From Methylococcaceae bacterium (GTDB taxonomy: Bacteria > Pseudomonadota > Gammaproteobacteria > Methylococcales > Methylomonadaceae): DNA of 13,564 bases. The stretch covers positions 1 to 13,564 of the forward strand of contig JAIFMS010000027.1 of NCBI GenBank assembly GCA_020048335.1, written 5' to 3'. The position numbers and the translations under genes are program-made. Within the stretch, counting starts at the first letter, position 1. Each line of letters opens with the position of its first letter. A model generated the notes under the pieces. The model saw only the letters and a program-made list of their open reading frames with translations, was not told where the DNA came from and made no database searches. Positions 6,553-9,526 of the stretch are shown one piece after another.

Positions 6553-6645
6553 TCTACAAAGAGAGGATTAACGGGCGAAAATCGACTATCGCAGGATAAT
6601 CGATTGCTTCCTTGATAGGTTTTGGACTATCAGGCTGACTGTCCA
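6553..6645 (-). pseudogene. Orphan duplicate of the 3' end (last 30 codons) of the yrfG-like HAD hydrolase gene
   Basis: The minus-strand translation of 6645..6553 is MDSQPDSPKPIKEAIDYPAIVDFRPLILSL*. The true C-terminus of the HAD gene (9526..9433) is VMVSQPDSQKPIKETSDYPAIVDFRQLIACL*, i.e. 23 of 30 residues identical. Nucleotide identity is about 85% in the same orientation. The orphan copy ends 27 nt upstream of the histidine-kinase start codon. Confidence 0.7.
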
Positions 6646-6646
6646 T
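6553..6646. repeat. Left copy of a ~94-bp imperfect direct repeat flanking the MVP gene
   Basis: 6573-6646 reads ggcgaaaatcgactatcgcaggataatcgattgcttccttgataggttttggactatcaggctgactgtccat and aligns with 9454-9526 (ggcgaaaatcaactatcgcaggataatcgctggtttctttgataggtttttgactatccggttgactgaccat). The longest identical block is actatcgcaggataatcg (18 nt). Confidence 0.85.
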
Positions 6647-6906
6647 TAGTTGCAGGTACGGTATAACGGGATTTATTGAGTTAAATCAACTGGCTGAGTA
6701 TGCAAACAGCTCACACACTTCACAAGCTTTATCCTCAAAAATCCTGTGTAAAGAAAATAATAAGAGTGCCATGATTTTCTCACTGAGTGGCTAAAAATGT
6801 CCTATTATAAGCAGTAACCGTCACTGGCGGTTTAAATGAAAGCGCGGATTTTTTGCCCCATTTTCATCACGCAAGCTCACGCGCTGGTTGCTATTTTTTC
6901 ATGTTT

Positions 6907-6911
6907 AGGAG
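6907..6911 (+). promoter_or_regulatory. Shine-Dalgarno sequence (AGGAG) for the MVP-homologue gene
   Basis: aggag lies 6 nt upstream of the ATG at 6918. The 390-bp intergenic region 6527-6917 between the divergent kinase and MVP genes must hold both promoters; no confident -35/-10 assignment could be made by eye. Confidence 0.6.
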
Positions 6912-6917
6912 ACTGCT

Positions 6918-9362
6918 ATGGCAGAAGAACGCCGTGAACGCGATTTAATCCTCGCGCCCAATGAATATGCCTATATCTTGGATGAAACCAAGGGCAATAT
7001 CGTCAACTATGTTGGCCCGCATAAAACCAGTTTAGCCAATACTGACCAACCCGTTGTTTTTAATGAGAAAACAAAACGCTTTGAACGCTGTAATCTCGAC
7101 CGCGCCATTCAGCTATTTGCCATTGCCCCCGAAGGTTGGTATGTGGTGCAGAAAAATCCCGCGCAAGAGGGCAAAGCCCCAACCATTGGCACGGCTAATA
7201 GCCTGCCGCCATTGAATATTGGGCATAAAATCAACATCCCAGGGCCGGTGTCTTTTGCGCCATGGCCAGGGCAAATGGTGCGGGTTTTACAAGGGCATCG
7301 CCTGCGTTCCAATCAATATTTAGTGGTGCGGGTTTATGATGAAGAAGCGGCACGCAAAAATTGGAATTCTGCCGTCATTAAACCGCAAACCGCCAGTGCT
7401 GAAGGGGAAGTCGCTGAACTGTTTAGCGATGCGGTAAAAGCCGAAGAACTAACGGTAGGTAACTTATTGATTATTAAGGGAACTGAGGTATCGTTTTATA
7501 TTCCACCGACGGGGATTGAAGTCGCGGCGGATAATACGGGCAATTATGTGCGCAATGCGATTACCTTAGAACGGTTGGAATATTGCATTTTGTTGGATGA
7601 AAATGGCAATAAACGCTATATCACCGGGCCATCGGTGGTGTTTCCTGAACCGACTGAGGCGTTTATCAGTAAAGATGGCTTAATTAAATTTCGTGCCATT
7701 GAGTTAAATGAAATCAGCGGTATTTACATTAAAGTGATTGCCCCGTATGAAGAAGACGGCAAAAAATACCAAGTTGGGGAAGAATTATTCATCACCGGCA
7801 AAGAGCGGATGATTTATTTTCCCCGCCCTGAACAAGCGATTATTCGTTATGGCGATCAGGAAATTCACTACGCGGTGGCAATTCCAGCGGGGGAAGCGCG
7901 CTATGTGTTAAATCGCTTGAGTGGACAAATTACCTTGCAAAAAGGGCCGTGTATGTTTTTACCCGACCCGCGCAAACAAGTAATTGCACGGCGGGTGCTA
8001 GACCCCAAATCGGTAGAAATTTGGTTTCCGGGTAATTACGAGGCGTTGGAATACAATCGGCGTTTAAAAGCCTTGAATAGCACCGATTTTGTGGATGAAC
8101 AAGAGGTGCAAGCGTATTTGCAGCAAGAGCGGGAAGATTTTTGTACTGCCGCGCCTGCGCCAAAAATTGCCAGTGAAGAATTTAATCGTGAGCAGGATTT
8201 TACCCGTCCGCGCACCGTAACCTTAGATACCAAATATGAAGGCGCGGTGTCGATTGAAGTGTGGACGGGGTATGCGGTGATGGTGGTCAGCAAAAGTGGT
8301 AATCGTAAAGTCATTGTCGGCCCGCAAACCTATTTGCTGGAATATGATGAAACTTTACAAACCATTTATTTATCAACGGGTAAGCCGAAAACTGATGCCA
8401 ATTTAATCAAAACCGTGTATTTACGCTCGCTGCATAACAAAGTGTCGGATTGCATTGAAGTGGAAACGGCAGATTTTTGTCCAGTGCAGTTATTATTATC
8501 TTACCAAGTCAATTTTGTCGGCGAGTCAAATACATGGTTTGATATTGAAAATTATGTCAAATTTCTCACTGACCATATTCGTTCCGTGCTGCGCTATGCG
8601 GTAAAAAAATACGGTATCGAAACGTTTTATGCTAACGCAATTGGCATTGTTCGCGATACGCTCCTTGGCGTGGCGAATGAATCAGGACAACGCACTGGCA
8701 TGAGGTATCAGGAAAATGGAATGCACGTTTATGATGTTGAAGTATTGGACGTGACGATTCAAGACGACGATATTTCGCAATTATTGTTGCAAGCGCAACA
8801 CAGCACCGTGCAGCAAACCTTGGAAATTGCCGCTGCACAGCGGGCGTTGGCGTTGCAGCAGCAAAAAGAGCAGATTGCGCAACAAATGCTCACCGCCAGC
8901 GCGACAACGCAGCAATTGCAGTTGGATATAGAAATTTCTCAGGTTAACAAGCAGTTAGAAGTCAATCTGGCTAAAATCAATAATGACATTTGCAGCGAAA
9001 AACAGCAATTAGACGCAGAACTTGCGCAACAAGCCACCTTGGATAGCATTAATCACGCCACCCTTGCGCGGACTAAAGCGCAGCAAGATTTAGATTTGGC
9101 AGTGGCGCAAGCACAATTGCAGCAACAATTAGAGGAATTAAGAGCCGGTGTTGCCGCAACGGTTGAGCAAGCGCAAGCGGTATCGCCGCAGTTTATTGCG
9201 GCAATGCAGGCGTTTGCCGATAAAGCCTTGGCAGAGAAGTTGGCAGCGAGCATGGCTCCGTTAGCGATTTTGGGCGGTAATAGTGTTGCCGAGGTGTTTT
9301 CGCAATTGGTTAAAGGCACGATTTTGGAGCGGGTTTTGATTGATACGCCAAATGAGGAATAA
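6918..9362 (+). CDS. Major vault protein (MVP) homologue, full length: N-terminal vault repeats, shoulder domain and a Q/A/L/E-rich cap-helix coiled coil
   Basis: Intact 814-aa ORF with a good RBS. Several segments are recognisably similar to the human MVP sequence as I recall it: the N-terminus ILAPNEYAYILDETKGNIVNYVGPHKT (MVP: [28 protein letters not shown]); LSTGKPK (MVP: LSAGRPK); IEVETADFCPVQLLLSYQVNF (MVP: [21 protein letters not shown]); FDIENYVKFLTDHIRSVLRYAV (MVP: [22 protein letters not shown]). This is followed by ~150 aa of Q/A/L/E-rich heptad sequence equivalent to the cap-helix, and a C-terminal LVKGTILERVLIDTPN that resembles MVP LGLKSTLITDGSTP. Confidence 0.85.
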   Translation: MAEERRERDLILAPNEYAYILDETKGNIVNYVGPHKTSLANTDQPVVFNEKTKRFERCNLDRAIQLFAIAPEGWYVVQKNPAQEGKAPTIGTANSLPPLNIGHKINIPGPVSFAPWPGQMVRVLQGHRLRSNQYLVVRVYDEEAARKNWNSAVIKPQTASAEGEVAELFSDAVKAEELTVGNLLIIKGTEVSFYIPPTGIEVAADNTGNYVRNAITLERLEYCILLDENGNKRYITGPSVVFPEPTEAFISKDGLIKFRAIELNEISGIYIKVIAPYEEDGKKYQVGEELFITGKERMIYFPRPEQAIIRYGDQEIHYAVAIPAGEARYVLNRLSGQITLQKGPCMFLPDPRKQVIARRVLDPKSVEIWFPGNYEALEYNRRLKALNSTDFVDEQEVQAYLQQEREDFCTAAPAPKIASEEFNREQDFTRPRTVTLDTKYEGAVSIEVWTGYAVMVVSKSGNRKVIVGPQTYLLEYDETLQTIYLSTGKPKTDANLIKTVYLRSLHNKVSDCIEVETADFCPVQLLLSYQVNFVGESNTWFDIENYVKFLTDHIRSVLRYAVKKYGIETFYANAIGIVRDTLLGVANESGQRTGMRYQENGMHVYDVEVLDVTIQDDDISQLLLQAQHSTVQQTLEIAAAQRALALQQQKEQIAQQMLTASATTQQLQLDIEISQVNKQLEVNLAKINNDICSEKQQLDAELAQQATLDSINHATLARTKAQQDLDLAVAQAQLQQQLEELRAGVAATVEQAQAVSPQFIAAMQAFADKALAEKLAASMAPLAILGGNSVAEVFSQLVKGTILERVLIDTPNEE

Positions 9363-9432
9363 TCATTTTCTTGGACACAAAATCGCTCTTGCTGGTTAAA
9401 AAGCACTACCCTTAAGTTTTAATAAAAGCCCT

Positions 9433-9526
9433 TTATAAACAAGCTATTAGCTGGCGAAAATCAACTATCGCAGGATAATCGCTGGTTTCTTTGATAGGTT
9501 TTTGACTATCCGGTTGACTGACCATC
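9433..9526. repeat. Right copy of the ~94-bp direct repeat (equals the functional 3' end of the HAD gene)
   Basis: See the left copy at 6553-6646. This copy is in frame with and contiguous with the HAD CDS. Confidence 0.85.

Follow-up and report, generated by a model that had tools for sequence, protein, structure and literature searches.

The stretch of DNA considered here, referred to throughout as the window, comprises 13,564 nucleotides from a Methylococcaceae bacterium (GenBank assembly GCA_020048335.1, contig JAIFMS010000027.1, positions 1 to 13,564), and it is identical to a 29-kb JGI metagenome contig (L001/L009). At its center lies a gene for a homolog of the vault protein MVP, flanked on one side by the gene for a large hybrid histidine kinase and on the other by yrfG, which encodes a nucleotidase of the HAD family and is divergently paired with nudE (Table 1). 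The last codons of yrfG are present twice, once in place at the end of the gene and once just upstream of the kinase gene, with the MVP-like gene enclosed between them. An initial annotation of this DNA had put the MVP gene on an inserted segment framed by two versions of the yrfG 3' end. This view is upheld by the different native context of the gene in its relatives, by a relic of its usual neighbor, a DUF6164 gene, between the two gene ends, and by 80 genomes with no MVP gene near nudE-yrfG. The divergent yrfG/nudE pair itself is widespread in the order: it is found in 70 or more Methylococcales genomes, nudE adjoins yrfG in most of the 80 loci surveyed, and the nearest named genomes as judged by YrfG are Methylococcales at 64-75% identity.

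A repeated gene end on either side of an MVP-like gene

A repeat search of the window returned 80 nt at 6567-6646 and 9446-9525 that are 86% identical at a spacing of 2879 nt. In full register the match covers 6554-6646 (copy A) and 9433-9525 (copy B), both on the minus strand and in the same orientation and frame, with 75 of 93 nt identical and a blastn E-value of 2.7e-21. The repeated unit is the last 30 codons plus the stop codon of the 218-aa HAD gene yrfG; similarity runs from the ATG of codon 188 to the stop codon, and the 60 nt on each side are unrelated (18/60 and 11/60 matches). At the protein level the two copies agree at 23 of 30 residues (MDSQPDSPKPIKEAIDYPAIVDFRPLILSL in copy A vs MVSQPDSQKPIKETSDYPAIVDFRQLIACL in copy B) and end in the same stop codon. 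The initial annotation had noticed that the 3' end of the HAD gene recurs near the kinase, and the repeat it described is real; its ranges, 6553-6646 and 9433-9526, had the two registers one base apart and are replaced by those given above. It had also counted 27 nt between the copy A stop codon and the kinase ATG and had called the HAD gene yrfG-like, and both statements stand, the protein scoring above the equivalog cut-off for YrfG. A generic dispersed element, the outcome that would have undone the observation, can be set aside: among 187 fetched loci the yrfG-tail motif occurs once per locus, within yrfG, this lineage alone excepted, and the window itself holds no further sequence of the kind.

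Table 1. Features of the window in coordinate order
Feature	Position	Strand	Basis or remark
CHASE-PAS hybrid histidine kinase, 1486 aa	2066-6526	minus	Pfam CHASE, PAS, HisKA, HATPase_c, Response_reg; downstream of copy A and of the putatively captured DUF6164 promoter side
Kinase-side spacer, 27 nt, copy A stop to kinase ATG	6527-6553		Read from sequence; same in L101 and L093
Copy A, displaced or duplicated yrfG 3' end, decaying relic	6554-6646	minus	27 nt upstream of kinase ATG
Left junction filler	6647-6675		No match elsewhere in the window or in fetched loci outside the lineage
DUF6164 5' relic, frameshifted; start codon and ~30 codons	~6676-6772	minus	Alignment and blastn against L102
Native intergenic region of the divergent DUF6164/MVP pair, brought in together with MVP	6773-6917		Aligns with L102 and, more loosely, L104
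MVP-like gene, 814 aa	6918-9362	plus	Pfam MVP_shoulder (PF11978), 95.4 bits vs gathering threshold 25; Vault_3, 33.2 bits vs 28.8; ATG preceded by a strong ribosome-binding site, AGGAG (read from sequence)
70-nt spacer, MVP stop to yrfG stop; holds right junction	9363-9432		Lineage-specific
Copy B, functional last 30 codons and stop of yrfG	9433-9525	minus	Resembles orthologue C-termini more than copy A does
yrfG, intact GMP/IMP nucleotidase gene, HAD family, 218 aa	9433-10089	minus	NCBIfam NF011564, 225.6 bits vs equivalog cut-off 189, residues 3-217 covered; Pfam HAD_2 and Hydrolase
nudE, divergent partner of yrfG, anchors native side of locus	10139-10696	plus	NCBIfam NF008736, 270.7 bits
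LRR-Roc-COR GTPase	10700-13114	plus	ORF listing and family searches

At the family level, the label 'MVP homologue' is acceptable for the protein encoded between the repeats. An AlphaFold2 model built on 38 homologs (mean pLDDT 54, N-terminal half below 50) is of low quality as a whole and confident at residues 507-740, where an alpha/beta domain leads into a helix of ~135 residues. In a Foldseek search with this model, and subject to that mean pLDDT of 54, the top 12 PDB matches all belong to mammalian MVP, from human, rat and rabbit (E 1e-13 to 1e-16, ~18% identity, 684-882 aligned columns), with SPFH proteins next; phmmer against PDB sequences returned no MVP for the window protein, even at E = 10. 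In sequence, this particular bacterial clade lies very far from eukaryotic MVP. Public databases hold many such proteins (6927 matches at E below 1e-10), and bacterial and viral MVP homologs have already been described (bioRxiv 10.1101/872010 and bioRxiv 10.1101/2023.11.10.566534, respectively). The present protein resembles the former in its MVP_shoulder and Vault_3 matches, in a modeled shoulder domain followed by a long helix, and in its Foldseek vault matches. It differs in that the earlier bacterial MVPs came from Myxococcales, Cytophagales and Oscillatoriales and exceed 50% identity to eukaryotic MVP, whereas the window protein comes from a relative of Methylococcales and reaches ~18% to mammalian MVP in the fold alignment. 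A PADLOC search gave no defense-system match for MVP or DUF6164.

Several further observations concern this protein. AlphaFold2 with 38 homologs fails over its N-terminal 500 residues. Genes for MVP-like proteins, 48-50% identical to that of the window, lie on three IMG/VR viral contigs (L188, L189 and L190; 81-140 kb), amid many small open reading frames (ORFs) on the same strand. A population variant (JGI 3300034627, L007:1163-1510) has a ~22-nt deletion at the MVP 3' end that turns the C-terminus from ...ERVLIDTPNEE into ...ERVLIIFLDTKSLLLVKKHYP, the ORF running on into the spacer.

Origin of the DNA between the repeats

Close relatives of the MVP-like gene, at 89-97% amino acid identity, are found in five other loci, where they adjoin a divergent DUF6164 gene and not yrfG. 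Three of these (L102, L185 and L186; MVP identity 96-97%) share the order SulP, a 126-aa ORF, DUF6164 on the minus strand and MVP on the plus strand, and DUF6164 is divergent from MVP in L104 (89%) and L187 too. By blastn, homology of the window to the DUF6164-context loci spans 6683-9343 at 91-92% nucleotide identity and starts inside the DUF6164 coding region. What the window retains of that gene reads MALLLFSLHRIFEDKACEVCELF, then a frameshift, then LHTQPVDLTQ; the intact counterpart in L102, L185, L186 and L104 is MAILLFSLRGVPEDEAYEVRELLHTQQIDFYE. The intergenic region listed in Table 1 lies within the stretch that blastn matches between this lineage and L102, L185 and L186, and is presumed to hold a bidirectional promoter; no match to a sigma-70 consensus was found in it, and consensus scans for promoters and terminators at both junctions gave nothing above shuffles. 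The statement that MVP is the sole gene between the two copies therefore holds for intact genes and has to be amended for the frameshifted DUF6164 5' relic.

The DNA between the repeats accordingly consists of filler, the truncated 5' end of DUF6164 with its native intergenic region, MVP and a spacer, with only 271 nt and 70 nt lying outside MVP. No source for the junction filler or the two spacers was found in any fetched locus. The left filler lacks 10 nt in L101, a locus of the same layout from another JGI sample; the 70-nt spacer between MVP and yrfG occurs in this lineage only (its first 24 nt alone match L101) and is unrelated to the DNA downstream of MVP in L102, L185, L186, L104 and L103. 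Since the window carries the DUF6164 relic, the shared intergenic region and MVP together, the sequence comparison supports the view that the inserted DNA is a piece of chromosome from the same clade, without the anatomy of a mobile element.

This composition bears directly on the initial annotation, which had read the locus as a classic case of site-specific integration or else of a duplicative insertion. Under the first reading, a genomic island would have been put into the yrfG 3' end by a tyrosine or serine recombinase, the repeats would be attL and attR with the identical 18-nt block at 6585-6602 and 9464-9481 as crossover core, MVP would be a minimal cargo, and the integrase would later have been lost. 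The resemblance is genuine, in that islands and other integrative elements in the 3' ends of tRNA or protein genes typically leave direct repeats that duplicate the target's 3' end, an intact gene and a displaced copy at the far end, and the MVP-like genes on the three viral contigs may be counted in favor of such an island. However, no recombinase or transposase ORF or remnant was found between the repeats or anywhere in the 13.5-kb window (ORF list and Pfam), as the annotation itself had recognized for the integrase; nor were tRNA or tmRNA genes, Rfam families, or terminal inverted repeats at 6647 and 9432. A transposon or insertion sequence is no better served, there being neither transposase nor terminal inverted repeats and the duplication measuring 93 nt vs the 2-14 bp expected. 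The cargo carries a truncated chromosomal neighbor gene with its native intergenic region and is not the payload of an element, and the five loci with MVP relatives are ordinary chromosomal contexts without integrases. The 18-nt block, which has zero matches at up to 3 mismatches in shuffles of the window, encodes (S/I)-D-Y-P-A-I-V; D-Y-P-A-I is conserved in orthologues, yrfG genes of other genera show the degenerate codon pattern as well, and within the block copy A has one mismatch in L093 and two mismatches in L101. That the block is identical in the window thus reflects inherited codon conservation and not a recombinase site. With no integrase, excisionase or other element gene, a 2.8-kb chromosomal insert and a proposed core made of conserved codons, integration by a recombinase is very unlikely to account for the locus. 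A Xer/dif-like site in the left filler was also considered and dropped, its score of 18 lying at the 95th percentile of 60-nt windows, which is not significant.

If the MVP-like gene came from elsewhere, the question arises of what adjoined yrfG before. In 80 Methylococcales yrfG loci, the DNA up to 10 kb from nudE-yrfG holds neither an MVP gene nor a kinase gene. Downstream of yrfG in Methylococcales lie clusters of a DEAD-box helicase gene (rhlB-like, minus strand), trxA and rho in 58 of 76 loci (L016-L092; names read from sequences, not from a family search). The nearest sampled relatives have yet other yrfG neighbors, a Cu-oxidase in L098 and a BLUF protein in L100, and the subclade of the window (L013, L098, L100 and the window itself) broke synteny downstream of yrfG in several different ways; because the closest relatives differ in this manner, the yrfG flank is a synteny breakpoint in the subclade. 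A metagenome scan with the first 340 residues of the kinase yielded relatives at no more than 49% identity and missed even the contigs from which the query came, and was therefore uninformative. From the 27-nt spacing, which is what a gene end before the kinase would leave, yrfG followed by the kinase may reasonably be taken as the state just before the event.

The same data can be read from the other side. Incoming DNA from a relative, with the yrfG tail (copy A) at its start and the kinase cluster behind it, could have been joined inside DUF6164 and have truncated that gene, with yrfG, MVP and DUF6164 already neighbors and MVP no insertion at all. The geometry is symmetrical, with one junction in DUF6164 and the other at the yrfG tail, and the usual Methylococcales neighbors of yrfG are rhlB, trxA and rho, not a kinase. 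Moreover, a rare residue of copy B, C29, recurs in a third close lineage (P0003, discussed below), so that, should that lineage lack the arrangement, the B tail would be the native one. Against this, yrfG is absent from the far side of MVP wherever an intact DUF6164-MVP pair is found (five loci), and that place is taken by a PAS kinase, an AI-2E transporter, or a small HAD-family hydrolase followed by lptC. In addition, the 70-nt spacer between MVP and yrfG is unique to the lineage, so that this junction is novel too and two events would be needed. We regard an incoming kinase side as decidedly unlikely. A simple inversion was rejected because the kinase beside MVP in L102 and L185 is not orthologous to the window kinases (23-32% identity, PAS domains only).

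Two other lines of evidence were of limited use. Base composition was discarded as a sign of transfer: GC3 of MVP is 0.47 vs 0.31-0.42 in its neighbors, but native genes vary equally. The 90%-identity clusters of the L102, L186 and L104 DUF6164 proteins have five members, none from the window's samples, which is weak evidence that the window species lacks an intact DUF6164; the extra member of these clusters, from L187, again adjoins MVP.

Age, fate and probable origin of the two gene ends

The arrangement can be dated relative to the split between the window and L101, which differ by ~8% at the DNA level, with a flanking-gene dS of 0.20-0.32. L101 has the same order, namely kinase, copy A, DUF6164 relic, MVP, yrfG, nudE and Roc-COR gene, and because it shares this layout including copy A, the insertion predates the split. 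All 13 contigs with a window-type YrfG, from 13 samples, carry MVP or the MVP-side spacer downstream.

Since the split, the two copies have had different fates. Copy B is joined to the gene and under selection: it differs between the window and L101 at 4 of 93 nt, and it is nearer than copy A to 93 of 118 orthologue C-termini, the reverse never being seen. Copy A is decaying and not maintained. It differs between the two at ~19% of sites, mostly non-synonymous, next to a 27-nt spacer that is identical. Post-split changes number 6 in the window (with Q8P and Q25P) and 8 in L101, where a 10-nt deletion additionally takes out the ATG; they include E13K and D16N and do reach less tolerant positions. 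Copy A might instead be a functional small ORF or a regulatory leader of the kinase kept by selection, given that the window copy forms an uninterrupted ORF of 30 codons, complete with ATG and stop, that ends 27 nt ahead of the kinase start. The loss of the ATG in L101 and the pace of non-synonymous change beside an unchanged spacer make this extremely improbable, and Pfam found nothing in the 30-aa ORF.

Changes that predate the split carry a different signature. Sites at which copies A and B differ were classed using both species, the window and L101, a conserved residue being one shared by at least 85% of 113 orthologues. Nine differences were fixed before the split, at positions 5, 12, 40, 82, 83, 84, 86, 90 and 93 in gene orientation. 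None hits a conserved residue and none makes or removes a stop codon, an outcome that nine random substitutions produce with a frequency of ~0.02. Six of the nine fall in the last 12 nt (binomial ~3e-4, calculated by hand for an interval chosen post hoc), and ancestral divergence over positions 1-81 amounts to 3 nt. The reconstructed ancestral copy A (MDSQPDSQKPI[K/R]EASDYPAIVDFRQLILSL) keeps the conserved residues and the stop codon and has the right length for a YrfG C-terminus. Because the fixed differences spare conserved residues and are concentrated in the last 12 nt, the two tails fit the picture of two once-functional yrfG ends brought into one locus shortly before the split; two orthologous gene ends with different downstream neighbors would also give a homology that ends exactly at the stop codon. 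The suggestion of the initial annotation that one copy is a 'replacement 3' end' supplied from outside thereby gains some support, as both reconstructed tails keep conserved residues and stop and their differences are unlike the decay of a simple duplicate.

A simple duplicative insertion, in which the resident yrfG tail was copied, for example by replication template switching or staggered-break repair, and the two copies were identical at first, must be weighed against this pattern. It would account naturally for the lineage-specific residues M1, I11 and V21, which both copies share and more distant orthologues lack and which place the origin of both in this clade, for the lack of a known donor with a yrfG tail beside MVP, and for the mere 3 nt of ancestral divergence over positions 1-81. 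It does not predict a unit ending exactly at the stop codon, however, and a neutral copy A should have taken random hits before the split as it did after it, whereas six of the nine pre-split differences are crowded into the last 12 nt and none touches a conserved residue or the stop. On balance we consider this explanation unlikely.

A search for a functional A-type allele, using a chimeric protein query of YrfG residues and the reconstructed A-type tail, which ends in ...DFRQLILSL, gave one irrelevant candidate (P0246). A third close lineage is represented by P0003, a YrfG of 223 aa on a 940-nt JGI/NCBI contig, with the tail ...QQPIREVCDYPAIVDFRQLIDCL and 94.6% identity to the L101 YrfG. Its tail is a mosaic, with Q9, V14 and C15 as in L101 copy A and V2 and C29 as in copy B, and could be either a gene-conversion patch or an unoccupied allele. 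C29 is rare, being found in 5 of 113 orthologues and common to copy B and P0003. C29 links P0003 to copy B, and Q9, V14 and C15 link it to the L101 copy A, so that either tail may be the native one.

Taken together, these features are best explained, in our judgment with about an even chance of being right, by a one-off recombinational insertion of a ~2.8-kb chromosomal fragment with 3'-end displacement, of the type termed homology-facilitated illegitimate recombination (defined in PMC3240628). A single recombination event, before the split of the two lineages, would have put the DNA at 6647-9432 between yrfG and the CHASE-PAS kinase gene. The incoming piece would have comprised the complete MVP-like gene, the intergenic region that separates it from DUF6164 and the ~30 opening codons of DUF6164 itself, from a donor of the same clade in which DUF6164 and MVP were native divergent neighbors. 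The mechanism we infer combines a homologous crossover, either in the yrfG tail or upstream of it, with one illegitimate joint, the latter probably marked by the truncated DUF6164 gene and the ~30 nt of filler; the assignment of a native tail belongs to the same inference. The outcome would be two yrfG tails, copy B on the gene and under selection and copy A beside the kinase and decaying since, and the kinase would now be read from the captured DUF6164-side promoter. Consistent with displacement, an orphaned 3' end lies downstream of the incoming DNA and a homologous but different 3' end, distinguished by the nine fixed sites, is on the gene; consistent with an illegitimate joint, DUF6164 is cut after ~30 codons and followed by ~30 nt of sourceless sequence.

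Several points weigh against this reading. A donor with a yrfG tail linked to MVP was not found, and in 5 of 5 intact DUF6164-MVP loci MVP is flanked on its far side by a gene other than yrfG, sampling being thin; likewise, an empty site with yrfG directly followed by the kinase was not recovered. The statistics rest on 93 nt and nine substitutions, the clustering test having been picked after the data were seen, and gene conversion between the copies could distort the pattern, as the mosaic tail of P0003 illustrates. Furthermore, published cases of homology-facilitated illegitimate recombination usually show a deletion, not a duplication, of recipient DNA at the illegitimate joint.

There is nonetheless a close precedent in the orphaned rhs 3' regions and displaced type VI secretion effector genes that have been attributed to the same process (PMC5361080). 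On this reading, in both cases a homology anchor lies in the conserved part of the gene, the gene acquires a new 3' end, the old one is orphaned downstream, and no integrase is involved. The present locus differs in that the gene codes for a housekeeping nucleotidase where those loci encode polymorphic toxins, the cargo gene is unrelated and runs on the other strand, there is one event and no array, the tails differ by ~10% vs mutually unrelated toxin tips, and no donor is known. The event is thus a fresh instance of a known process, not a new kind of system.

Allele exchange, neighboring genes and significance

Synonymous divergence places the donor close to home. Among the window, L101, L102, L185 and L186, dS of MVP is 0.18-0.44, the same range as for the flanking genes in the comparison of the window with L101, and because it falls in that range the donor is assigned to the same clade; it may have been the genome itself. 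Horizontal acquisition of MVP is possible. The DUF6164-context lineages yielded no yrfG at a dS below ~1.8. L100, with a YrfG at 80% identity, and L185, with an MVP at 97%, come from the same sequencing run (SRR22387929); were they one genome, an MVP dS of 0.34 beside a yrfG dS above 2 would prove transfer of MVP.

The flanks of the window and L093 show 0-2 differences per 100 nt (flanking dS 0-0.04), whereas the MVP region differs at 88 sites in 6859-9317, or 3.6%, with a dS of 0.148 and a dN of 0.006. This indicates that a diverged MVP allele was imported by homologous recombination, and recombination at MVP is clearly ongoing. The MVP tree also conflicts with locus context: the L101 gene (10001-12445) is nearer that of L185 (3927-6374; DUF6164 context, dS 0.18) than that of the window (yrfG context, dS 0.35). 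The 3.6% difference between the window and L093 across MVP and the affinity of the L101 and L185 genes hint at a further possibility, in which the yrfG-tail copies would serve as handles of an integrase-less cassette site, MVP alleles would be swapped repeatedly between lineages, and the yrfG 3' end would be a recurrent landing pad. The divergent tract between the window and L093 ends inside the gene region and not at the yrfG repeats, and because its boundaries are not at the repeats the exchange is ordinary homologous allele exchange and not cassette exchange; we consider the cassette site highly improbable.

The surroundings of the insertion have peculiarities of their own. Directly after nudE lies the gene for a bacterial ROCO protein of 804 aa (LRR, Roc GTPase, COR-A and COR-B; 10700-13114), a second 'eukaryote-like' gene less than 4 kb from the MVP homologue, and it is kept in L101 and L093. 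The window kinases contain PAS-domain repeats with a 378-nt periodicity (3937-4313; families 183-255, 561-633, 3884-3956 and 4673-4745), and the L101 kinase orthologue is one 377-nt unit short (1358 aa vs 1486 aa), so that domain number differs between the lineages. At 13129-13474 the window holds five copies of a ~24-36-nt unit (GTCTTAATCCCTTCTAAACAGGG[A/C]AGCCATTCAAAC) at a spacing of 68-79 nt. This array follows a G/C-rich hairpin-like stretch at 13185-13225, has related copies in L101 at ~21624-21730 and no Rfam match, and is either CRISPR-like or a local dispersed repeat.

The finding tells nothing on the role of bacterial MVP. It does carry a caution for the calling of genomic islands from direct repeats alone, in that a gene-end duplicate can resemble an att pair and not be one. 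If the favored explanation is right, a eukaryote-like vault-protein gene moves in uncultured, methanotroph-related gammaproteobacteria without any mobile element of its own, carried on chromosomal fragments that simply recombine and passed on by exchange of alleles.

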